Source: Candidatus Saccharimonadota bacterium (GTDB lineage Bacteria; Patescibacteriota; Saccharimonadia; Saccharimonadales; Saccharimonadaceae). From it: DNA of 64,000 nt. A program made the position numbers and the translations under genes. The notes under the pieces are model-generated. The model ran no database searches, was not told the origin of the DNA, and was given only the letters and a program-made list of their open reading frames with translations. Positions 40,845 to 52,367 of this stretch are shown here, piece by piece; the first letter of the stretch is position 1; the number at the start of each line of letters is the position of its first letter. The stretch lies in assembly GCA_030537075.1 (NCBI GenBank), contig JAUNOS010000001.1, positions 30,079 through 94,078 of the forward strand. The letters run 5' to 3'.

Positions 40845-41297
40845 TTAGAGATGCCTCCTAATGACGCCCTGGCCATCCTTTATATTAACCTCAAAACCAT
40901 ATTTTTCATACCAATATCGCAATTTATCAAAATGATCTGCATCAGTATTGCTTAGATTTCCACAAATTGTACGGCAACCAATTTCTTTCGATAGACTAAT
41001 TAAAAACTCCAACATCCTAGAGCCATAACCCCTATTCTCAATTTTCGAAACAATATCCCCTAAGAACATCTCTCGCTTATGTTTGTGATAGACGATATCC
41101 ATACGCACTATCCATCCCTTGTGCCTTCTGTGATACATATCGACACGCGCCACGCCTTCATCTATCAGTTCTTCAATTCTTTGACCAAGGCTAATAAACC
41201 ACTCTCCATCCGGCGATATCAAGACCATATCGCTAATCCTTTCATTGTACGCAAGCTGACTCAAAAACTCTTTTTTCTTTGATCTAAACAATACCAT
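40845..41297 (-). CDS. GNAT family N-acetyltransferase
   Basis: Acetyl-CoA-binding motif region (...RGYGSRMLEFLI...) and length of about 150 aa. Confidence 0.7.
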   Translation of the reverse strand: MVLFRSKKKEFLSQLAYNERISDMVLISPDGEWFISLGQRIEELIDEGVARVDMYHRRHKGWIVRMDIVYHKHKREMFLGDIVSKIENRGYGSRMLEFLISLSKEIGCRTICGNLSNTDADHFDKLRYWYEKYGFEVNIKDGQGVIRRHL

Positions 41298-41312: not shown

Positions 41313-44150
41313 CTACACACCATCTATGAATGTAGTCAAAAACTTCCGCAGTCCATCACGCAGGCGGTCTACAATACTATCAAGCTCTAGCAGTCTTGGC
41401 TGCTCAATTAGCAGATCATTCAGCTCATGGTCGCGCGGCTTGTGTCCGCCAGAAAGATAGCGTGCCACAACCTTCTCAGCTTTCGCCTTGTCAATTCCAT
41501 TCTCGCGGCACAGCTTTTCAAACTCAGCCCGACGCTCGGCATCAAGAAATTCATAAAACTCTCGCTCAACATCACCCGACTCTTCTATGTTCGGCAGATT
41601 ATTCTGCAGAAACCGCTCAATAAGCTCCCGTTTGCTACGCAATTCGCTATCCGACTTCATCAAGCCGTCAATCGTCTGTCTAATCTCCTTCTGCCTCGAT
41701 TCACTTGCACCGACCATCTGTGCCACCAAGCGTAAAATAAAGCCCACATTTATTTCATCACGTTTCACCAGCTCTAGTTCGAAATCAAGATCCGCTAAAA
41801 TTGAAACTTTTTCCGCACTGCCTGGCCTGACAGAGTCGTAAATATCAAGATATTTACTCTGGTATTCCTCAATCTCTTGCTCTTCAATGTCAATGTCGTC
41901 GAAGTGAAATTCCGTGAATGAAATCAAGATATTTTTTAATTTTAGCAGCTCGCGAAATGCCTTCACAAAGCCCTCTTTTTGCTCTTCGCTCAGCAAATTA
42001 TCAACCGCATCTGGCGTATTAGCAGCTTGACGCAATACCGCCACTTGCCGATTAAACATTTCGACATACTCATGATACGGCTGCATAAACACCCGCTCCT
42101 GCGCCTCTTTATTTGCGAACAACCTCAGCGCTTCATTGGTGTTTTTCCGCAGGTTGCGAAACGCCACGATATTACCATGTGATTTCGTTTCGTTAAGAAT
42201 GCGGTTAGTGCGAGAATACGCCTGGATAAGTCCATGGTATTGTAAGTTCTTATCAACATATAGCGTATTGAGCGTTTTACTATCAAAACCGGTCAAGAAC
42301 ATGTTAACCACCAGCAGGATATCAATCTCACGCATCTTAACACGATCGGCAATATTACGGTAGTACTCATAAAAACTCGCCGAGTCCTTGGTGGTGTAAT
42401 TCGTGCCAAACATTTGGTTATAGTCGGCAATGTAACTCTCTAGCCTATCGCGCGAATGCAGATTCACCTTGCCATCATCTGGCATAACGTCCTCGTCCAA
42501 AATACTATCAGCGTCTTTATCCTCTTCATTCGCCGTATAACTAAAAATGGTGGCGATTTTCAGATTGTGCTCACCCGCCTCTTTTTTACGCTTGAACATT
42601 TCGTAATATTTTGCCAACATATCCGTGCTAGAAACAGCAAATATCGCGGTAAACTCACGGTTTCTCGTCTTGGCGTTGTGATTTTTGATAATGAAATCAA
42701 CATTTTGCTCCACCCAGTTTTCAGATTCAAACACCTCACGCACATTGATGCCCGGCACCTTTTCATCCGCAAGATTACGACCGTTGTATTTCACACCACT
42801 ATAGTATTCAACCGAAAATCGCAGCACATTTTCATCATTAATCGCGTCAACGATGGTGTATTCGTGTAACCTATCACCAAACAAATCCTTGGTAGTGCGC
42901 TTACCAAGTTCATTGCCACTGGCGTTTTCTGCAAAAATTGGCGTCCCAGTAAAGCCAAACATCTGGTAGTTTGTGAAGTATTCGGTGATTCGCTTGTGCG
43001 TTTCACCAAACTGACTACGGTGACACTCGTCAAAAATAAAGATAACTTTCTTATCACGCTGTTCATCCATCTTTAAAGCATGTCGTTCACGACTAATTGC
43101 CGTGTTTAGCTTTTGGATGGTTGTGACGATCAGTTTTGTATCTGGGTCATTAAACTGCTTTACCAAGTTTGCCGTATTGGTCGTTGTATCAACACTACCC
43201 TCTTTGAAGCTATTGAACTCACGGATTGTTTGATTATCCAAATCCTTACGGTCAACGACAAATACCACCTTGTCAACCTGCGGATTACTAATTAAAAGCT
43301 GGCTCGCCTTAAATGATGTCAGCGTTTTACCACTGCCCGTCGTATGCCAAATATAGCCGCCATGTATGCTATTCTCCACCCTATCGGCAATCGCCTCTAC
43401 TGCATAAAACTGGTACGGCCGCAGCACAAGTAGCGTTTTATTTGTCGTTAGTACGGTATATTTGGCAATCATTTTGGCGATATGGCAGCGGTCCAAAAAC
43501 ACTTGGGCGAACTGCTCTAGCCGGCTAATCTTTTGATTATCCTTGTCTGCCCAAAAGCTCGTAAATTTAAATGACGCCTTTTTACTATTGCCATACCCAA
43601 CTGTATTGGCATAATACTTAGTGTTCACTCCATTTGAAATTACAAAAATCTGCACAAAATCAAACAAGCCATAGCCTGCACTATATGAATGGCGACGGTA
43701 GCGATTGACTTGATTAAACGCCTCTTTCAGCTCAATCCCCGCCCGCTTGAGCTCGATCTGTACCAGCGGCAAGCCATTGATTAAAATCGTCACATCGTAG
43801 CGATTTAGATACTCGCCATCATTACTAATCTGGTTCGCCACCTGAAATTCGTTTTGACACCACTTTTCAATCTGTAAAAATTCGATCAATTGCGTCGTGC
43901 CGTCATCCCGCCTCAAGGCAAACTTATCCCTGAGGGCAAGGGCTTTATCAAACACCGTACCTTTTGAGAGGTGATGAAGAATCTGCTTAAACTCAGCGTC
44001 AGAAAAGGCAGTGTTATTATGCTTTTCTAGTTGCACCTTAAGGTTAGCAACCAAATCAGCCTCGTCCTTTATCACTACCCGCTCGTAACCCTGACCAGCC
44101 AGCTGCTGCATCAAGGATTCTTCAAGCTGTGATTCGGATTGGGTAGTCAT
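41313..44150 (-). CDS. hsdR: type I restriction enzyme R subunit
   Basis: 945 aa. N-terminal nuclease region, DEAD-like helicase motifs (Walker A TGSGKT, DECH), and C-terminal HsdR domain. Confidence 0.93.
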   Translation of the reverse strand: MTTQSESQLEESLMQQLAGQGYERVVIKDEADLVANLKVQLEKHNNTAFSDAEFKQILHHLSKGTVFDKALALRDKFALRRDDGTTQLIEFLQIEKWCQNEFQVANQISNDGEYLNRYDVTILINGLPLVQIELKRAGIELKEAFNQVNRYRRHSYSAGYGLFDFVQIFVISNGVNTKYYANTVGYGNSKKASFKFTSFWADKDNQKISRLEQFAQVFLDRCHIAKMIAKYTVLTTNKTLLVLRPYQFYAVEAIADRVENSIHGGYIWHTTGSGKTLTSFKASQLLISNPQVDKVVFVVDRKDLDNQTIREFNSFKEGSVDTTTNTANLVKQFNDPDTKLIVTTIQKLNTAISRERHALKMDEQRDKKVIFIFDECHRSQFGETHKRITEYFTNYQMFGFTGTPIFAENASGNELGKRTTKDLFGDRLHEYTIVDAINDENVLRFSVEYYSGVKYNGRNLADEKVPGINVREVFESENWVEQNVDFIIKNHNAKTRNREFTAIFAVSSTDMLAKYYEMFKRKKEAGEHNLKIATIFSYTANEEDKDADSILDEDVMPDDGKVNLHSRDRLESYIADYNQMFGTNYTTKDSASFYEYYRNIADRVKMREIDILLVVNMFLTGFDSKTLNTLYVDKNLQYHGLIQAYSRTNRILNETKSHGNIVAFRNLRKNTNEALRLFANKEAQERVFMQPYHEYVEMFNRQVAVLRQAANTPDAVDNLLSEEQKEGFVKAFRELLKLKNILISFTEFHFDDIDIEEQEIEEYQSKYLDIYDSVRPGSAEKVSILADLDFELELVKRDEINVGFILRLVAQMVGASESRQKEIRQTIDGLMKSDSELRSKRELIERFLQNNLPNIEESGDVEREFYEFLDAERRAEFEKLCRENGIDKAKAEKVVARYLSGGHKPRDHELNDLLIEQPRLLELDSIVDRLRDGLRKFLTTFIDGV

Positions 44151-44173
44151 GATTGCCTTTCTTTATTCAGTTT

Positions 44174-44210
44174 TGTGAAAATAGTAGATTTTTTGGTGTT
44201 TTTTACACGC
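44174..44210. repeat. ~37-bp element, copy A (direct repeat of 46474-46510)
   Basis: TGTGAAAATAGTAGATTTTTTGGTGTTTTTTACACGC. About 30/37 identical to copy B. Lies in the hsdR upstream region. Confidence 0.7.
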
Positions 44211-44236
44211 CAATAGCCTGTTAAAATTATATAAAA

Positions 44237-44674
44237 TCATGTGAAATTTTCCCAAATTTCATCAAATTCACTCTCAAGAATCGACTTAATATACTGGGTT
44301 TCGCCACAATTTTTCGGCAAATCATTCTTGCTATAAATTAGTAATATTTTCATCTGTCGTTTTGCGGCAGAATAGTACACCACACATCTATTGCCCGCAT
44401 CTTTGGCTGCAACCTTTGTCTGAGCAACCCTAAAGTCATACTTAAAGATCCATTGACCATCAGCATGCCACAACTCATCCACCTGCTGGGTGTGCTGCAA
44501 AGTATTTTCGGCAAACGAAATACGCGCAAGGTCTTGAAAGATAGACTCTTCGGTTACCTCCCACTGCTTGCCTCTGTATTTTTTCTGAAAACCTTTTAGA
44601 AAATGCCTACGAGCGTAATCTGTATACTCAACGCCTATCAAAACATTGCTAGTTGGTATACGGTTTGTAAACAT
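44237..44674 (-). CDS. putative toxin of a Panacea-associated toxin-antitoxin pair (145 aa, unclassified)
   Basis: Overlaps the 3' end of the upstream HTH-DUF4065 gene by 26 nt in another frame, with an internal AGGAAG RBS. No recognisable toxin fold by eye. Confidence 0.5.
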   Translation of the reverse strand: MFTNRIPTSNVLIGVEYTDYARRHFLKGFQKKYRGKQWEVTEESIFQDLARISFAENTLQHTQQVDELWHADGQWIFKYDFRVAQTKVAAKDAGNRCVVYYSAAKRQMKILLIYSKNDLPKNCGETQYIKSILESEFDEIWENFT

Positions 44675-45341
44675 GTTGCGGATCTTCCTGGGTGATTAGA
44701 CTATATGGAATATATTCGCCATCGGCGCAAGCCTGCCAAGGTCGCTGCGCGTGGGTGAAATTGACTATTTCCTCAGTTCTAGCACTCTCCCAGGTTTTAC
44801 AGATTTCATCAACGCGCTTTTTCTCATCAGCCGACAACAGATCTTCTTGTGGTTTTGTTGATGCACTTCGGCTAATCATAAACGCACCGCGATCAAGCAC
44901 CTCTATATTGATTTTTCCACCGTCATAAAGGGACTCTGTTAGCTCAAAGAAAGTGTCTGCAACCGGTCCGTACTGCCTGCGCACATACCTCATGCCGGTC
45001 ATAGGCTCCAGTGTGTCATAATACCAGCTAAAGTCAATTAGGTACAGGATCTTGGCTAGCTTAGTTTTAGGAACCCCCCCTTTAAAATGACTAAGAACAT
45101 ACAAATATAACTGTTCAAATTTCTCGTTATTCCGCGGCGTATCAATTAGCTCAGAAATAGAAACATCATAAATTTTAGCCAGTCTTTCTAGTAGCTCAAT
45201 ATTTGGCTTGGATTTTCCAGACTCAATATTTATATAGGTCGCTCTACTAATGCCCAGTTGCCCAGCAACGGCATCTTGCGTCAAATCTTTACTGCTCCTT
45301 AGATTCTCAAGGTTTTGTGCGACTGTGCTTGTGATACTCAT
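44649..45341 (-). CDS. HTH-XRE plus Panacea (DUF4065) domain antitoxin-like protein
   Basis: N-terminal XRE helix-turn-helix (LTQDAVAGQLGISRATYINIESGK). C-terminal region KLAKILYLIDFSWYY...YGPV is characteristic of DUF4065/Panacea. Confidence 0.75.
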   Translation of the reverse strand: MSITSTVAQNLENLRSSKDLTQDAVAGQLGISRATYINIESGKSKPNIELLERLAKIYDVSISELIDTPRNNEKFEQLYLYVLSHFKGGVPKTKLAKILYLIDFSWYYDTLEPMTGMRYVRRQYGPVADTFFELTESLYDGGKINIEVLDRGAFMISRSASTKPQEDLLSADEKKRVDEICKTWESARTEEIVNFTHAQRPWQACADGEYIPYSLITQEDPQHVYKPYTN

Positions 45342-45507
45342 TTTTCGCCCTTTCTTTGATATAAATATAGCATTTTAATTCATAAATGTCAAATATTTAT
45401 ACGTCTTTGTACTATTTATTGTATCAATGACCAAGCTTAAGCGCAATAAGTTTCTGACATTCTTGTAACTTGATGTAAATAATACTCATCATTTCCTTGA
45501 AAAATAC

Positions 45508-45536
45508 TTGACACCACCCTTGCGCTGTCATACAAT
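45508..45536 (+). promoter_or_regulatory. sigma70 promoter (TTGACA, 17-nt spacer, TACAAT) for the 257-aa gene
   Basis: Near-perfect consensus hexamers with 17-nt spacing. Gives an approximately 125-nt leader containing a GC hairpin (CGCCC-CGAAA-GGGCG, 45551-45565). Confidence 0.6.
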
Positions 45537-45668
45537 ATAAGCGAGAAAGACGCCCCGAAAGGGCGCCCTTCGTTAAAATATATAGTACCCACTAAAATTA
45601 TTTTAACTTTCTCATACTAATTGAAATTTAAACGAAGGTCAAGCGGAGGGACAGGCTGGAGTAACACG

Positions 45669-46394
45669 ATGGCAGAAAATAGGTCATCAGTCGTATCTGT
45701 GGGCGACTTAAATATCTCACAGAAGCATACCACAATAATTGTCGAACCAACCGCGTTCGCTGATGGCTTCGACAAAGACGCTTACGACACGGCGGAACTA
45801 TCCACTCTATTGTGGGTCGAAAATCCCGAAGAGAGGTGGGTCGAAATACCGCTACCGTTCGCAACGGAAAATTTCAGCGCGTCTGTTTCGGTAATATCTG
45901 CCGGACCCGACGAGTATAGGGATCGCATCTTTAGCGTTTCCCAGATTCGAAACGGTTTCGAAAAATATATCCCCTACTTGAGGCATCTGGGAACTTCAGA
46001 AGAGTTGCTCGGTAACAAGAAAGCACTGAGGAACATCCTAAAAGGTATGCGCGTAGCTATGGTCAAACTTCCGGCTGGCAACTTGGTTGTAAAAATCCAG
46101 TGTAGCCAGATTATCAAGAAGGACCCCGATGATATGAATGGCAAAACCTTCAGCTTCAAAGCCTTTGCGCCGCTTCCGAGCTTTTTCGTGAAAAACGCTG
46201 CGCCACTCAAACTGCACGTTATCTTCAAGGACGTAGACACAATTTCAAGAGAAATTGAAACACCAACTCTGTCCTATCCGTTCGGAGATATCCCTACGGT
46301 AGACAGCCAAGAGACAACGTTTGGCGGCGATAAATTATACTACTGGAAATGGCAAAATGACCCGGTGGTAGAGTTTAAGTACCGATACTTATAA
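45669..46394 (+). CDS. hypothetical protein (241 aa from the ATG at 45669), cassette cargo of unknown function
   Basis: GGAG RBS 8 nt upstream of the ATG at 45669. The ORF-track TTG start at 45621 is less likely. No recognisable domain. Strong dedicated promoter and terminator. Confidence 0.55.
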   Translation: MAENRSSVVSVGDLNISQKHTTIIVEPTAFADGFDKDAYDTAELSTLLWVENPEERWVEIPLPFATENFSASVSVISAGPDEYRDRIFSVSQIRNGFEKYIPYLRHLGTSEELLGNKKALRNILKGMRVAMVKLPAGNLVVKIQCSQIIKKDPDDMNGKTFSFKAFAPLPSFFVKNAAPLKLHVIFKDVDTISREIETPTLSYPFGDIPTVDSQETTFGGDKLYYWKWQNDPVVEFKYRYL

Positions 46395-46410
46395 TTGGCA
46401 ATATGGCGAT

Positions 46411-46441
46411 AAGGGGCAGATTGACTGCCCCTTATTTTTTC
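46411..46441 (+). terminator. rho-independent terminator
   Basis: Stem AAGGGGCAG/CTGCCCCTT with a 5-nt loop, then T8. Confidence 0.8.
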
Positions 46442-46473
46442 ACGAATGCGCGATCAGGTGGTATTGTAGTTGG

Positions 46474-46510
46474 TGTGAAAATTGATAGATTTTTGGTGTT
46501 TTTCACACCT
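46474..46510. repeat. ~37-bp element, copy B (direct repeat of 44174-44210), itself a hairpin
   Basis: TGTGAAAATTGATAGATTTTTGGTGTTTTTCACACCT. Its ends GGTGTGAAAA/TTTTCACACC form a perfect 10-bp inverted repeat. Confidence 0.7.
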
Positions 46511-46844
46511 CTTTACTTTTCTGTATTAAGCCCCGAATTCTGCTTATGTCGTCTCGCGATTGACTTATTTCCATATTCAGCTGATTGACCACATCATTAG
46601 CAATGTCATGAAATAGATCAGTTCCTTCATCTTCAAGTACGAAACTCACTTGATTATCGCTATTTATCGCAAAATCAAAAACTTTATCAAATAGGACTTT
46701 GATGTCATCTGTAGAATTATCCGACAAACTCACTTTAGAGCCTATCCCCTTAAACTCTAAGCATATGTTGTCGCTACTAGAAGCAGACCTATCTCCACTA
46801 ATCACTACATTTATTATATTTTTTCTATCTATCTCCATAAACAT
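46503..46844 (-). CDS. small acidic hypothetical protein (113 aa), translationally coupled to the PHP-ATPase
   Basis: Start ATG at 46844 overlaps the upstream stop (46825) by 20 nt. Asp/Glu/Ser-rich. Confidence 0.5.
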   Translation of the reverse strand: MFMEIDRKNIINVVISGDRSASSSDNICLEFKGIGSKVSLSDNSTDDIKVLFDKVFDFAINSDNQVSFVLEDEGTDLFHDIANDVVNQLNMEISQSRDDISRIRGLIQKSKEV

Positions 46845-48936
46845 TCTTTCTACTATTAAACATCTCTTCTCCTCCTTCTAAATGAGTAATTGCAACCTTG
46901 AACCAATCTTCCATTTTTCCTTTGCTTGCGCCTACTAATTCACCGGAATACATATTGCCACAATAGTATGTCTCATCGTCCGGATAATTGCAATATACAA
47001 CTTGGCTCGGTAGTGTATTGACTGCAATATTTGCATCATGCGTGGAAATCACTATTGTTTTTCCCAGCTCTCTTATATTCTTTATTTGCGGTAACAGGTG
47101 ATTAACTATATATTTATGACCAAGACCCCTCTCTATCTCGTCAAATAGGTAGCAATCGTATTCGGGATTCTCTAGCGCGGCACTAACAGATAGAATAGCC
47201 CTTTCTCCCTCCGAAGGCTTATAGTTATCATCACCTTTTATCCTGATTGATTCTCGTTTTTTAATTATATCTGTAATAAATTTATTAACATCAACCCCCT
47301 GTTCTGCTACTTTAAAATATTCATTAATGTTAGAAAATTTTGTTACATTAAAGTTCTCAATTTTCTTTACGACACCCCTGTTAAAAACGATTCGATTCTT
47401 ATCAAACACAGAATCTTTCCTATGTTTATCTCTCTGGCTAAGGCAAACGACCTCAACTCCTAGGGTCACATCACCCTTACCAGGCAAGTATCCTATTGGA
47501 AAGGCACTCTCAGACTGTATTTGTTTCATGTTTTCTACTAACCTACTGTTTGCTTCAAGCCTCTCAAGTCTGCTTGCAAATAGTTTTGAGAGTCCAATAT
47601 TTGTAGGCTTAGGTTTGCTGCCAGTACATTTTTTCAGCGAGTCTTTAATAGATACGATAAATCGCTCTGTGAATTTGTCAGAGTATTGTTTTGCTAAAGT
47701 ATCTTTAGCTTCAGACATAATATCCCGCTTCAACAGAGACAATTCTTTCATCAAACTATCTTTGTCTCTCGACGTAATCTTGGTAGTTTTATTTAATGCG
47801 ACTACTTTATCTACTTTATCCATATTTTCTTCGCACGCATCCATTATGGCCTGCATTTTATGTGAATTCAGGTCGGTAAAGCTACAATCTGCCTTTAAAA
47901 CTCTCTTCGCGCGCGCATTTGTTATTTTGCTCTGGTTAGCAGATTTATATTCTTTAATGAAATCGCGGACAGGAGACTCTCGATAATTCAAAATTTTTTG
48001 GATATCTTCTTTGATCTCCCGCAAGATATCTTCATTTATTTTTTCTCTCTCAGCGTAGCTATTGATTATTTGATCATAATATCTTTGATAATCCGAGCCT
48101 TTATGCAGAAAACATTTTTTACCTGATGCTGCAAACGCTGGCATAATATAATCTTCCATTAATATAGTTTTGCCAGATCCTTTTTCACCAAATACTATAT
48201 TTATATCGTCGTATATACTCACTATTCCCGCATCGGTTTTTACGTTAAGGCTACTTGAGCCATCAAGAGCATTTTTTACAAACATTTTTGGATCTTTTGC
48301 TAACTCGTAGAATTTACCAAAACTATCTATAGAGAACTTTACTTCTGGCGTCATAGACGCGCTATAGTTGTCCCAGTCTTTAACATCGCTACCAATCAAA
48401 CATAGTCTATTGATTCTATGATTAACTATACCCATAGAGAGAGTATTTGCCGTTTCCATAATTAACACATAGCCGGCAAGGCCTGATTCAAGATCACTCC
48501 TTTCATTCGGCCTAAATCCATTGGCCTTATCATAGAAATGAGGTATTATAATAATTTTATCTTTAGGTAATTGATTTGTGCGATTAATAAATTCTTTGTA
48601 TGAAAATGAAAATGTATTATAGTTTCGATTCGGGTCGCCATCATACGCACTACTGAACTCTTCAGTAATTCCCGGATCGCATACCACAATAACTTGTCTA
48701 TTTTGACCATCTTCTAATTTGATATCCAGTTCTATGCCTGGTATTACAACAATGCCTTCACCCAATTCAACTACCTTATTGTACTCATTCACATCGAACT
48801 TGTTGTGATTGGTGATCGAACAAAAGCCGACTCCGCAGTTTCTCATTTTTTCGATGTATGCTTCTGGGGTGATTTCACGTTTCTTTCCATCACCGGTCTT
48901 TAGGCACTGTGTATGTGTGTGCAAATCAATTCTCAT
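46825..48936 (-). CDS. PHP-domain phosphoesterase fused to an OLD/RecF-like ABC ATPase (Ppl-like antiphage architecture)
   Basis: N-terminus MRIDLHTHT (PHP HxH motif) with further His/Asp/Glu metal ligands. Central Walker A GEKGSGKT. C-terminal Walker B/D-loop YLFDEIERG and H-loop ISTHD. ATGA overlap with the hsdS stop. Confidence 0.72.
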   Translation of the reverse strand: MRIDLHTHTQCLKTGDGKKREITPEAYIEKMRNCGVGFCSITNHNKFDVNEYNKVVELGEGIVVIPGIELDIKLEDGQNRQVIVVCDPGITEEFSSAYDGDPNRNYNTFSFSYKEFINRTNQLPKDKIIIIPHFYDKANGFRPNERSDLESGLAGYVLIMETANTLSMGIVNHRINRLCLIGSDVKDWDNYSASMTPEVKFSIDSFGKFYELAKDPKMFVKNALDGSSSLNVKTDAGIVSIYDDINIVFGEKGSGKTILMEDYIMPAFAASGKKCFLHKGSDYQRYYDQIINSYAEREKINEDILREIKEDIQKILNYRESPVRDFIKEYKSANQSKITNARAKRVLKADCSFTDLNSHKMQAIMDACEENMDKVDKVVALNKTTKITSRDKDSLMKELSLLKRDIMSEAKDTLAKQYSDKFTERFIVSIKDSLKKCTGSKPKPTNIGLSKLFASRLERLEANSRLVENMKQIQSESAFPIGYLPGKGDVTLGVEVVCLSQRDKHRKDSVFDKNRIVFNRGVVKKIENFNVTKFSNINEYFKVAEQGVDVNKFITDIIKKRESIRIKGDDNYKPSEGERAILSVSAALENPEYDCYLFDEIERGLGHKYIVNHLLPQIKNIRELGKTIVISTHDANIAVNTLPSQVVYCNYPDDETYYCGNMYSGELVGASKGKMEDWFKVAITHLEGGEEMFNSRKNVYGDR

Positions 48937-50042
48937 ACAAACATCCTTTGCAATAGTGCTTTTTTGAACTTTTTTAGCTCCTCTAGTTTTTGAGTTTCGA
49001 GGGTGATTTTTTCGTCGATTTGGGAGAGGAAAGCGGCGATTTTCTGTTGCTCTTCAATTAGAGGCATTCCCAGTGTATAGATATTGCATATCACAGATGG
49101 GTGTGCCTTCGTGGTATAATCAAATACCTGTCTACCTTGCAGATATTGAAGTTGGCTCGCTAAAAACTTTGTATCTACTAGATTTTCATCAATAACTTTA
49201 ATAAACCCAGAAACATTAGTTATGGAGAATCTATGAGTTGGTCTATAGAAGAAATCACCCCCACCATCAATAGACCAAGTTATCATCTCGCTGTCAAACA
49301 TATAATTTCCGTACCTACCAAAAAGACCATTATTTTTCACAGAGGAAGAGTAGATGGGATACTCTCCGGGGTTGGCATCTACATCAGTGGCCGATATCAC
49401 CATGCCACGACCCATATTGATAAATCCTTTATCAACGATATCGCCTAGCTTTGTCGTCTCCCACTCTGGGAAGTCACTACCATCATCGCGCTTGAAGCGG
49501 AGAGTGCGGGTGAAGATTTTTTGGGTGAGGCCGCGTTTGTAGGCTTCGAGTTTTTCGACTTTGCGGCTAGTGAGCTCAATCCGCTCATCCACCGCCGTCA
49601 AAAACTCAGCGATTTTTTCTTGCTCCTGCTTGCTCGGGATGTTAACCTTAACTTTTTCTATCGTTGACTTAGATAAACTTGGTACACCTGTAGCTTCATT
49701 GTATCGTTGCCAATTGATATTGTTAAAAATTTCAAAGACAAACCTGGGACAAGAATCAACATAATCACGAGTGTAAAATAGTGTATCTACCGTCCAAAAT
49801 TTACCAGATAGAAATTGCGGTTTATCAATCGTGCCTTTGCGACCAATTGCAACACTTTCGCCTTCATATAGGTAATCGTCAACACTGAGCATATATCCGC
49901 CAGTGCCATACACTGGAATATCGCCTTCACCTAGATGCTTATAGTCACGACCGTTGCCAATAGTTAAGATGTCGCCGATCTTTTTCGTAGACCAGTCGTC
50001 GGTGAATTCAGGAAATCGCAAACTAGGCTTCATTACGTACAT
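48933..50042 (-). CDS. hsdS: type I restriction-modification specificity subunit
   Basis: 369 aa with two target-recognition-domain halves separated by conserved helical spacers. Positioned with hsdM and hsdR. Confidence 0.88.
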   Translation of the reverse strand: MYVMKPSLRFPEFTDDWSTKKIGDILTIGNGRDYKHLGEGDIPVYGTGGYMLSVDDYLYEGESVAIGRKGTIDKPQFLSGKFWTVDTLFYTRDYVDSCPRFVFEIFNNINWQRYNEATGVPSLSKSTIEKVKVNIPSKQEQEKIAEFLTAVDERIELTSRKVEKLEAYKRGLTQKIFTRTLRFKRDDGSDFPEWETTKLGDIVDKGFINMGRGMVISATDVDANPGEYPIYSSSVKNNGLFGRYGNYMFDSEMITWSIDGGGDFFYRPTHRFSITNVSGFIKVIDENLVDTKFLASQLQYLQGRQVFDYTTKAHPSVICNIYTLGMPLIEEQQKIAAFLSQIDEKITLETQKLEELKKFKKALLQRMFV

Positions 50043-50820
50043 CTCTATCTAAATACTTATTTTCGTTATTAAGCCACCGTTGCCTAAGGCGCTTACTTGC
50101 AGGCGTATCTCCCATCTGCCATTCATTTGCGTAAGGAACATACCCCAATGCGACCAAAAAATTAATGGCATCCGCATCATACTTAATACCCAACCTCAGC
50201 TTGACTTCACTTAGTCTCCAATACGGTTTTACATCAAGAAACTCACGAAGGTCACTAGGATAATTAATATTGCTTGCAGCCCACCGCTCAAACACTTTCT
50301 GTAAACGCTTATTTTTTATTTGATATATTTTTTTAGCTATTTTACGTAAGCCAAATCTCGCAACTGACATGATTCCAATCGTATCAGCAACAAATCCCCA
50401 CCAGTCAAAAAGTTCCACCCCAGACGCGCCCAAGCCTGAAGGTATGCTAATTGCGACACTTCTACCGTCACCAAATATAATACCAGCCCCTAAGGCTTCG
50501 TCGATTTCGCGTAATGTCCAGTCCTCATAAAAGCCCTCTAGATCACCTGTTTTTTTGACTGTATCATCGCCGTTTATTTTGTATGGTATTCCCCATGCGC
50601 TGTCGGTTTTTTTCTCCTGATCCGACCCTTTATCTATAGCTATACCGATTGGGGTTTGATTTGTAATTACCCCATCTTTCTCAAAGACTTCATTATATGT
50701 AGATATAATTACTGAACGCAGCGACTCATCAAGGTTAACTTCTTTTCTAATGACGATAGGTTCGTCGAGCATGTCTCCATACTGAGTCGTCCTAAATATT
50801 AGGTCAATTTTTTCCATCAT
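50023..50820 (-). CDS. hypothetical protein (265 aa) inserted between hsdM and hsdS
   Basis: ATGA overlap with the hsdM stop and 20-nt overlap with the hsdS start. Lower GC. No recognisable domain. Confidence 0.6.
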   Translation of the reverse strand: MMEKIDLIFRTTQYGDMLDEPIVIRKEVNLDESLRSVIISTYNEVFEKDGVITNQTPIGIAIDKGSDQEKKTDSAWGIPYKINGDDTVKKTGDLEGFYEDWTLREIDEALGAGIIFGDGRSVAISIPSGLGASGVELFDWWGFVADTIGIMSVARFGLRKIAKKIYQIKNKRLQKVFERWAASNINYPSDLREFLDVKPYWRLSEVKLRLGIKYDADAINFLVALGYVPYANEWQMGDTPASKRLRQRWLNNENKYLDRDVRNEA

Positions 50821-52367
50821 GGCGCCTCAATCCCCAATTCTTTGCAAAACTCAGCGATTTTCGCGTCAACTTCGGCGGATTTTTGGTCGATTTGTTTGAT
50901 TTCGGCGGTGACTTCGGCAAGGTCAATTTCCGGCTCAGGTTCAAATGTATCGACATAGCGCGGAATGTTAAGATTAAAGTCATTTTCGGCGATTTCGGCT
51001 AGGCTAGCGTTGTGACTGTATTTGTTGATTTCGGCGCGGGTGGCGTAGGTTTCGATAATTTTGTCGATATTTTTGGCGCTAAGGTAATTTTGATTCTTGC
51101 CTTTGGTGAATTCGCGGCTGGCGTCGATGAAGAGTACGCTTTCTTCTGGCGTGCGGCATTTTTTGAAGACTAAAATACAGGCAGGGATACTTGTTCCGTA
51201 AAATAGGTTTGCTGGCAAGCCAATAATCGCGTCAAGGTAATTACGCTGCTCAATAATAAAGCGACGAATCGCCCCTTCGGCTGCACCACGAAACAGTACG
51301 CCGTGCGGCATAATAACTGCCAGCGTGCCGCTATCATCCAGTTGGTGGATCATGTGGGTAATGAAGGCGTAGTCTGCCTTACTTTTTGGTGCTAGACGAC
51401 CATACGGTGAAAATCGATCATCACTCAGGTGAATTGGGTCAGCCGACCACTTGGCACCAAACGGCGGATTGGCCACAATCGCTTCAAACCGCTTATCATA
51501 ATGCTGCGGGCGCTCGAGTGTATCATCCTGCTTAATATCAAAATCTGCATAGTGCACATCGTGCAAAATCATATTCATGCGAGCCAAGTTGTAGGTAGTA
51601 TTATTTAGCTCTTGGCCATAAATCTTATCAATTTCCCCAATATGCTTTTTAACACGAAGTAGCAAAGATCCAGAACCGCAAGTTGGATCGTATGCATTGC
51701 GCAGACGATCCCGACCTTGCGTCACAATGCGAGCCAAGATTTCAGAAACATCCTGCGGCGTATAGAATTCGCCCGCCTTTTTGCCTGCACCAGCCGCAAA
51801 TTTGCCGATGAGGTATTCGTACGCATCACCCAGGATATCAATCTGCGAATCTCCAAGCTGAAAATCAATCCTACTAAGGTGACTTAGTACTTTGGCGATG
51901 AGCTTATTACGCTCGGCGACTGTTTTACCAAGTTTAATATTATGAAGGTCGAGATCTGAAAAGAGATTACCGAAGTCTTCTTCGCTATCGCTTCCCATGG
52001 TGGACTTTTCAATACCGTGCAAAATCCGCTCAAGGTCTTCAGTGAGTGTACTATTATTTGCCGCACCTTCGGCGATAACCGTAAATAAATCTTCGGGGGC
52101 AAGAAAGCAGCCCAGCTTGTCAATTGACTGCTTCTTTATCGCCTTTAGATACGCTTCTTTTTGCGGGTGGTCTACAAGTGCTTCGTAGGTCGCGTGCTCC
52201 GGCTCAAGCAAATGATTGGCGTAATCGGTAATCTTTTCTGAAAGATATTTATAAAAAATAAGACCAAGCATATAGTCACGGTAGTCATCCGCGTTCATCT
52301 TGCCATGAAATTCATCGGCTACCTTCCATAGTTGCGCATGCAAATTGCGGCGCTGGTCCTCGGTCAT
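50817..52367 (-). CDS. hsdM: type I restriction-modification DNA methyltransferase subunit (N6-adenine)
   Basis: N-terminal HsdM domain, SAM motif I (DPTCGSGSLL) and catalytic NPPF (ANPPFGAKW). GGGGAGAGG RBS. Confidence 0.95.
   Translation of the reverse strand: MTEDQRRNLHAQLWKVADEFHGKMNADDYRDYMLGLIFYKYLSEKITDYANHLLEPEHATYEALVDHPQKEAYLKAIKKQSIDKLGCFLAPEDLFTVIAEGAANNSTLTEDLERILHGIEKSTMGSDSEEDFGNLFSDLDLHNIKLGKTVAERNKLIAKVLSHLSRIDFQLGDSQIDILGDAYEYLIGKFAAGAGKKAGEFYTPQDVSEILARIVTQGRDRLRNAYDPTCGSGSLLLRVKKHIGEIDKIYGQELNNTTYNLARMNMILHDVHYADFDIKQDDTLERPQHYDKRFEAIVANPPFGAKWSADPIHLSDDRFSPYGRLAPKSKADYAFITHMIHQLDDSGTLAVIMPHGVLFRGAAEGAIRRFIIEQRNYLDAIIGLPANLFYGTSIPACILVFKKCRTPEESVLFIDASREFTKGKNQNYLSAKNIDKIIETYATRAEINKYSHNASLAEIAENDFNLNIPRYVDTFEPEPEIDLAEVTAEIKQIDQKSAEVDAKIAEFCKELGIEAP

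Follow-up and report, generated by a model that had tools for sequence, protein, structure and literature searches.

What kind of protein does the gene next to a Panacea-domain antitoxin encode, when by eye it matches no common toxin family? This question is raised by two overlapping minus-strand genes, here called panA and panT, that lie at positions 44237-45341 of a 64,000-nucleotide (nt) stretch of a Candidatus Saccharimonadota genome (assembly GCA_030537075.1, contig JAUNOS010000001.1, positions 30,079 to 94,078 of the forward strand). We call this whole stretch the window. The original prediction for this locus, made from the sequence, was that the two genes form a toxin-antitoxin (TA) pair and that the 145-amino acid (aa) product of the second gene may be a new type of PanT toxin. 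The analysis reported here indicates that panAT is probably a bicistronic type II TA system of the PanAT class, and that its toxin is most likely an mRNA-cleaving protein of the HigB2 type.

Organization of the panAT pair

The features of the pair are listed here with their positions in the window.

44649-45341, minus strand: panA, the antitoxin gene, a 230-aa open reading frame (ORF) with an ATG start
44237-44674, minus strand: panT, a 145-aa ORF with an ATG start, encoding a predicted RelE/ParE-superfamily toxin that is HigB2-like
44649-44674, minus strand: overlap of panA and panT, 26 nt in different frames
44684-44689, minus strand: panT Shine-Dalgarno sequence AGGAAG, inside panA codons Q218-E219-D220 and 9 nt 5' of the toxin ATG
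45147-45308, minus strand: XRE-type helix-turn-helix (HTH) of PanA, residues 12-65, Pfam HTH_3
44733-45059, minus strand: Panacea/DUF4065 domain of PanA, residues 95-203, Pfam SocA_Panacea
45364-45392, minus strand: sigma-70-type promoter with TTGACA, a 17-nt spacer and a TG-extended TATATT, about 23 nt 5' of the panA ATG

The original prediction described an upstream gene that combines an XRE HTH with a DUF4065/Panacea domain, and a downstream gene that begins 26 nt inside it in another frame with its own AGGAAG ribosome-binding site. Both parts of this description are correct. PanA matches HTH_3 above the Pfam gathering threshold (E = 8.7e-14), and its match to SocA_Panacea (PF13274; E = 3.5e-15, 57.4 bits against a cut-off of 25.7) spans the whole model, from position 1 to 113 of 113. 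Given the internal Shine-Dalgarno sequence within the end of panA and the 26-nt overlap, the two genes are probably translationally coupled.

Of the 43 homologous loci examined, about 31 have the motif CAGGAAGAYCC (or CAGGAGGA), which contains this Shine-Dalgarno sequence, in the same place. In the window it occupies positions 44684-44694 and is made up of the invariant PanA codons Q-E-D-P, so the same stretch doubles as PanA coding sequence and as a ribosome-binding site. About eight codons at the start of the toxin gene (MFTH...) also overlap the C-terminus of PanA in the other frame.

Upstream of panA, the promoter has 11 of 12 matches in addition to its TG extension, and a TTGACA box can be seen by eye at a similar distance 5' of panA in most homologous loci. 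A 9-nt inverted repeat, TATAAATAT/ATATTTATA, flanks this promoter in AT-rich DNA (45360-45368 and 45393-45401). It is a candidate operator. One subclade of homologous loci (L024, L028, L029, L030, L032, L036, L040 and L043) has a palindrome of the form ACGCAACA-N-TGTAACGT / TACTGTACA..TGTACAGTA that adjoins the TATTGACA -35 box on its upstream side. This palindrome is also a candidate PanA operator.

Fold of the predicted toxin

Searches with the 145-aa protein find no match in Pfam (E ≤ 0.1) or PADLOC and nothing above noise in NCBIfam and PHROGs, and it is recognized by none of the RelE, ParE, HigB, YoeB, YafQ or Gp49 models of Pfam and NCBIfam. Pfam scans of 38 and of 101 relatives give no convincing family either, with just one of the 101 grazing the RelE family PF06296 (E = 0.014). 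The protein does have 127 homologues from metagenomes, which with few exceptions have 145 aa and which share 50-60% of their residues with it, and an identical protein (MDO5343372.1) is found in a metagenome-assembled genome (MAG) of Candidatus Saccharibacteria. An exhaustive search of 1.84 billion representative proteins with a family profile extends the family to 179 clusters at 50% identity (E ≤ 1e-3), from which 101 full-length representatives were taken for a family alignment.

The sequence matches that can be found all lead to one protein. A phmmer search of all PDB sequences matches, weakly, a single family, the Vibrio cholerae toxin HigB-2 (E = 0.04), over residues 82-134. The 101-member profile likewise matches only HigB-2 in the PDB (E = 0.014), and hhalign pairs this profile with the C-terminal half of HigB2 at a probability of 87.6%.

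An AlphaFold2 model of the toxin, built with 38 homologues, has a mean predicted local distance difference test score (pLDDT) of 92.9 and a predicted template modelling score of 0.87. Its topology is beta-alpha-alpha-alpha-beta-beta-beta-beta-alpha-alpha, which contains the elements that define the RelE/ParE fold: an N-terminal strand, two to three helices, an antiparallel sheet of three to five strands and an optional C-terminal helix. A Foldseek search with this model retrieves HigB2 (E = 5e-4). On the basis of the predicted model and this match, the 145-aa protein is a divergent toxin of the RelE/ParE fold and not a new fold. The statement that it belongs to no common toxin family thus holds for the domain libraries, where neither Pfam nor PADLOC recognizes it, but not for its fold. 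The proposal of a new PanT toxin type is not upheld, because the toxin is HigB2-like and of the RelE/ParE fold.

Predicted active site

The active site of V. cholerae HigB2 (VcHigB2) was mapped by mutagenesis to R51, R64, Y82 and K84 (Hadzi et al. 2017, PMC5416850). HMMER alignments pair the last three of these residues with R96, Y114 and K116 of the window toxin. Among the 101 diverse family members, R96 is retained in 100, Y114 in 99 and K116 in 100. Phe replaces Y114 in 16 of 38 close relatives. The equivalent of R51 is R82, a position that is not conserved in this family, since only some half of the 101 members have K or R there. On the same strand as R82, K78 is conserved in 100 of 101 members, and E125 is conserved to the same degree. 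Three of the four basic and aromatic active-site residues of the HigB2 subgroup are therefore retained.

panT residues K78, R96, Y114 and K116: predicted toxin active site

Strict conservation of these putative catalytic residues argues that the toxin is an active enzyme.

Conservation of the gene pair

When 185,579 species-representative genomes were scanned, the toxin family turned up at 44 loci. Most of them are in Candidatus Saccharibacteria and other Patescibacteria (Nanosyncoccus, Peregrinibacteria and Nomurabacteria), and a minority are in Firmicutes, Sphaerochaetaceae and one Pseudomonadales MAG. Directly at the start of the toxin gene, 43 of the 44 loci have a plus-strand ORF, in most cases 223-244 aa long, and the two commonly overlap by 23, 26, 11 or 20 nt. 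All 39 of the abutting ORFs that were scanned contain SocA_Panacea, and 35 of the 39 contain HTH_3, which bears out the TA coupling that was proposed from this single locus. The pair therefore has the conserved two-gene, TA-like neighbourhood expected of PanA, and the genes on either side of it vary from genome to genome.

Three homologues examined in their assemblies are each preceded, with a 23-nt overlap, by a gene for a 226-235-aa HTH and SocA_Panacea protein. Their other neighbours are unrelated to one another and consist of a ParB-methylase, type IV secretion system (T4SS) genes and SmpB/DnaE. Even a family member of 126 aa with 26% identity has an HTH-Panacea gene upstream. The 127 homologues, together with the Panacea ORF that abuts the toxin across loci, indicate that the pair is not a chance arrangement. 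As judged from sequence, panAT is an autonomous, mobile and probably translationally coupled two-gene operon, as expected of a type II TA system.

The PanA antitoxin

PanA has 761 homologues at E ≤ 1e-10. It is an acidic protein with an isoelectric point (pI) of 5.3-5.6, and of 5.25 in the window. An AlphaFold2 model built with 40 homologues has an overall pLDDT of 77, and values near 90 are reached in the HTH (residues 3-66) and in the helical Panacea core (72-184). A structure search with PanA returns matches to the HTH domain only. This domain resembles the controller proteins of restriction-modification (R-M) systems, both by sequence (PADLOC Control_protein, E = 2e-7) and by structural matches to C.BclI and C.AhdI.

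Two segments of the PanA model, residues 110-121 and 196-230, have pLDDT values below 50. The poorly modelled parts of the protein nonetheless contain many near-invariant residues: Y119, R121, R122, G125, P126, H197, Q199, P201 and W202, and further G208, E209, I211, P212, Y213, I216, P221, V224 and P227. Because high conservation coincides here with low confidence in the monomer model, we propose that these two segments are toxin-binding elements that would fold on the partner. Conservation of the last eight or so PanA codons may come partly from the overlapping toxin frame.

Proposed mechanism

If panAT operates as a TA system of this kind, then the promoter at 45392-45364 would transcribe panA followed by panT. 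Free PanT would most likely enter the ribosomal A site and cleave mRNA by means of R96, Y114 and K116, with K78 also contributing, as its fold and the conservation of its active site suggest. Cleavage of mRNA by PanT would then arrest translation and growth. By analogy with known PanA proteins, PanA may bind the toxin directly and neutralize it, with segments 110-121 and 196-230 as the leading candidates to fold on the toxin. An N-terminal HTH dimer of PanA could also autorepress the operon, as XRE-type antitoxins do. The biological role is more speculative, and might be island stabilization, abortive-infection defence or both.

Relation to known systems

The Panacea domain and the PanA antitoxins were defined by Kurata et al. 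(2022, PMC8832971), who counted an HTH domain in 343 PanAs and named MqsR-like, PemK and ParE domains among the partner toxins. One PanT group in Dataset S1 of that study, pT15/T14, consists of "hypothetical proteins" whose top HHpred match is HigB-2 (99.73%). T14 is paired with an HTH-PanA in antitoxin-toxin order in Ca. Saccharimonas aalborgensis, TM7 HOT_356, Pedobacter, Flexibacter and Cryosericum, and with an HTH-less PanA in Methanobacteria. Its members include WP_015641600.1, WP_129619247.1 and WP_067091868.1, and all T14 entries are marked "notest". The same list contains other RelE/ParE-like PanT groups, such as T28 and T59 (PMC8832971).

The window module shares with T14 an antitoxin-first operon, a short overlap, an N-terminal HTH on PanA and HigB-2 as the best structural homologue, and both occur in Candidatus Saccharibacteria. 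It has every descriptive feature of T14, in a comparison made by description. The overlap is 11 nt for T14 in Saccharibacteria, whereas it is 26 nt in the window and 23-26 nt in close relatives; distant members of the window family share the 11-nt overlap. Neither look-ups of 20 family representatives nor a profile search for the named RefSeq members returned any WP accessions. By its description, then, the window family is possibly T14 itself or a sister group. Whether or not the two are the same, a PanA paired with a HigB2-like toxin of the RelE fold is a kind of system that is already known.

V. cholerae HigB2 (PDB 5ja8, 5ja9, 5mje and 8a0x), a RelE-family ribosome-dependent mRNase, is about 16-19% identical to the window toxin. 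The window toxin has 145 aa where HigB2 has 110; its N-terminus is extended by 13 residues, its helices are longer and one more helix is present at its C-terminus. The two operons also differ in gene order: higB2 precedes higA2, whereas in the window the antitoxin is encoded first. The window antitoxin has an N-terminal HTH followed by the Panacea domain and is not of the HigA2 type, which has an N-terminal disordered neutralizing segment and a C-terminal HTH (PMC5416850).

Archaeal RelE (P. horikoshii PHS013, 1wmi) and YoeB (7v6w and 2a6q) are 12-18% identical to the window toxin, and their antitoxins are RelB or YefM instead of PanA. No sequence-profile link to RelE or YoeB was found, either as a Pfam match or as a significant hhalign alignment to an approximate E. 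coli RelE sequence. The MqsR:PanA pair of B. fungorum and the other RNase PanTs (Kurata 2022, Ernits 2023) resemble the window module in combining a PanA antitoxin with an RNase that targets translation, and some PanAs of these validated pairs contain an HTH as well. The validated RNase PanTs are MazF/PemK-like or MqsR-like, whereas the window toxin is HigB2-like. The MqsR:PanA toxin is moreover neutralized by a zinc-binding domain, and the window PanA is without one.

Genomic context

The panAT pair lies within a low-GC island of the window at about 41.0-52.4 kb (36-46% GC, compared with 53-58% in the flanks) that contains the genes of a type I R-M system. Between hsdS and hsdR there are about 4.8 kb of unrelated cargo, which consist of panAT and three other genes.

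50817-52367: hsdM, type I R-M
50023-50820, minus strand: 265-aa ORF between hsdM and hsdS that overlaps both; no Pfam match
48933-50042: hsdS, type I R-M
46825-48936, minus strand: PHP+AAA gene, 703 aa, with N-terminal PHP and AAA/ABC-type ATPase motifs; overlaps hsdS
46503-46844, minus strand: 113-aa ORF that overlaps the 3' end of the 703-aa gene by 20 nt
45508-46394, plus strand: lone gene amid a long minus-strand run, with a 241-aa ORF from the ATG at 45669
41313-44150: hsdR, type I R-M
40845-41297, minus strand: 150-aa ORF directly 3' of hsdR, at the GC boundary of the island

The 703-aa protein matches the NCBIfam TrlF-family ATPase over its N-terminus only (E = 1e-16) and the PADLOC candidate PDC-M49A (E = 1e-10), with weaker matches to AriA and AAA_21. 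Together with the 113-aa gene, it may form another pair of defence genes within the R-M operon. The lone plus-strand gene has a promoter at 45508-45536 with near-consensus elements (TTGACA, 17 nt, TACAAT) followed by a leader of about 125 nt. This leader folds no better than shuffled sequences (z = -1.0), and the 241-aa ORF has no match in Pfam, PADLOC, NCBIfam, PHROGs or the PDB. Over positions 44000-47000, Rfam gives only a non-significant tracrRNA match (E = 0.5), on the strand opposite the 241-aa ORF. The 150-aa ORF has weak GNAT similarity that falls under the gathering score (Acetyltransf_7, E = 7e-5). No tRNA gene was found in the region from 36 to 58 kb, and none flanks the island; the few flanking ORFs that were scanned include no integrase. 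This setting is compatible with either a defence or an addiction role for panAT.

Alternative explanations

The alternative that survives best is compatible with the mechanism proposed above. It is possible, though doubtful, that panAT serves as an abortive-infection system against phages, in which the Panacea domain senses a phage trigger and releases the RNase. The low GC content of the island, its type I R-M genes and its PHP+AAA gene of the TrlF/PDC-M49A kind would suit this role, and the authors of NetFlax, who describe Panacea as neutralizing directly or serving as an accessory or sensor domain, hypothesize such a sensory role and note links between TA systems and phage defence (PMC10440598). 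However, no PADLOC model matches the pair as a system, and other family members occur in non-defence contexts. Family relatives were found neither on plasmids or phages by tblastn nor on viral contigs in a scan of IMG/VR, which gives no evidence for a phage- or plasmid-borne module.

The toxin could instead be a ParE-type poison of DNA gyrase, which would have the same fold and the same neutralization by PanA, and would differ in its target. The family is basic, with a median pI of 9.3, and RNase members rank above ParE in both structure searches. Taken together with the conserved active-site residues, these observations lead us to favour a ribosome-dependent mRNA endonuclease of the HigB2/RelE type, and a gyrase inhibitor seems unlikely.

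Another improbable reading is that these proteins form a functionally distinct RelE-fold clade. Such a clade might have another substrate or mode of action, for example ribosome-independent RNA cleavage, and release of its toxin might be controlled by a phage or host cue that is sensed by Panacea in the episymbiotic Saccharibacteria. The features that could set it apart are the lack of a Pfam model, constant pairing with PanA, enrichment in the candidate phyla radiation (CPR), the invariant E125 and T126, the extra N- and C-terminal elements of the toxin, and the invariant loop and tail of PanA that are not modelled.

The chance that the pair is not a growth-arresting TA system at all appears slight. 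In that case, the RelE-fold protein would be catalytically inert or a co-regulator, and HTH-PanA would mainly be a transcription factor or sensor for neighbouring genes such as those of the R-M island. The likeness of the HTH to R-M controller (C) proteins, the position of the pair inside a type I R-M operon and the basicity of the window toxin, which lies below the family median, would all agree with this explanation. Yet the pair moves as a unit into contexts that are free of R-M genes (the ParB-methylase, T4SS and SmpB/DnaE neighbourhoods, and one with IleRS), the conserved putative catalytic residues point to an active enzyme, and the PanA proteins assayed to date are antitoxins. Finally, it is highly improbable that PanT is a toxin type of new structure with no relation to the classical families, a reading that is already refuted at the level of the fold. 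In its favour, no Pfam, PADLOC or NCBIfam model matches the window protein or the 101 family members, and the toxin exceeds classical RelE-family toxins by some 35-55 residues and has additional residues at the N-terminus and two helices at the C-terminus.

Implications

The panAT pair reveals neither a new toxin fold nor a new principle. What it adds is a well-defined group within the RelE/ParE superfamily that is missed by current domain libraries and that comprises some 180 clusters at 50% identity in a profile search. The group seems to be specific to Panacea antitoxins and is concentrated in Saccharibacteria and other CPR bacteria. In PanA, the loop and tail that are conserved yet not modelled offer a starting point for asking how an HTH-Panacea antitoxin neutralizes a toxin of the RelE fold. 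The TA and defence genes of Saccharibacteria and other CPR bacteria are poorly annotated, and a model of this family would allow its members to be annotated in these genomes.
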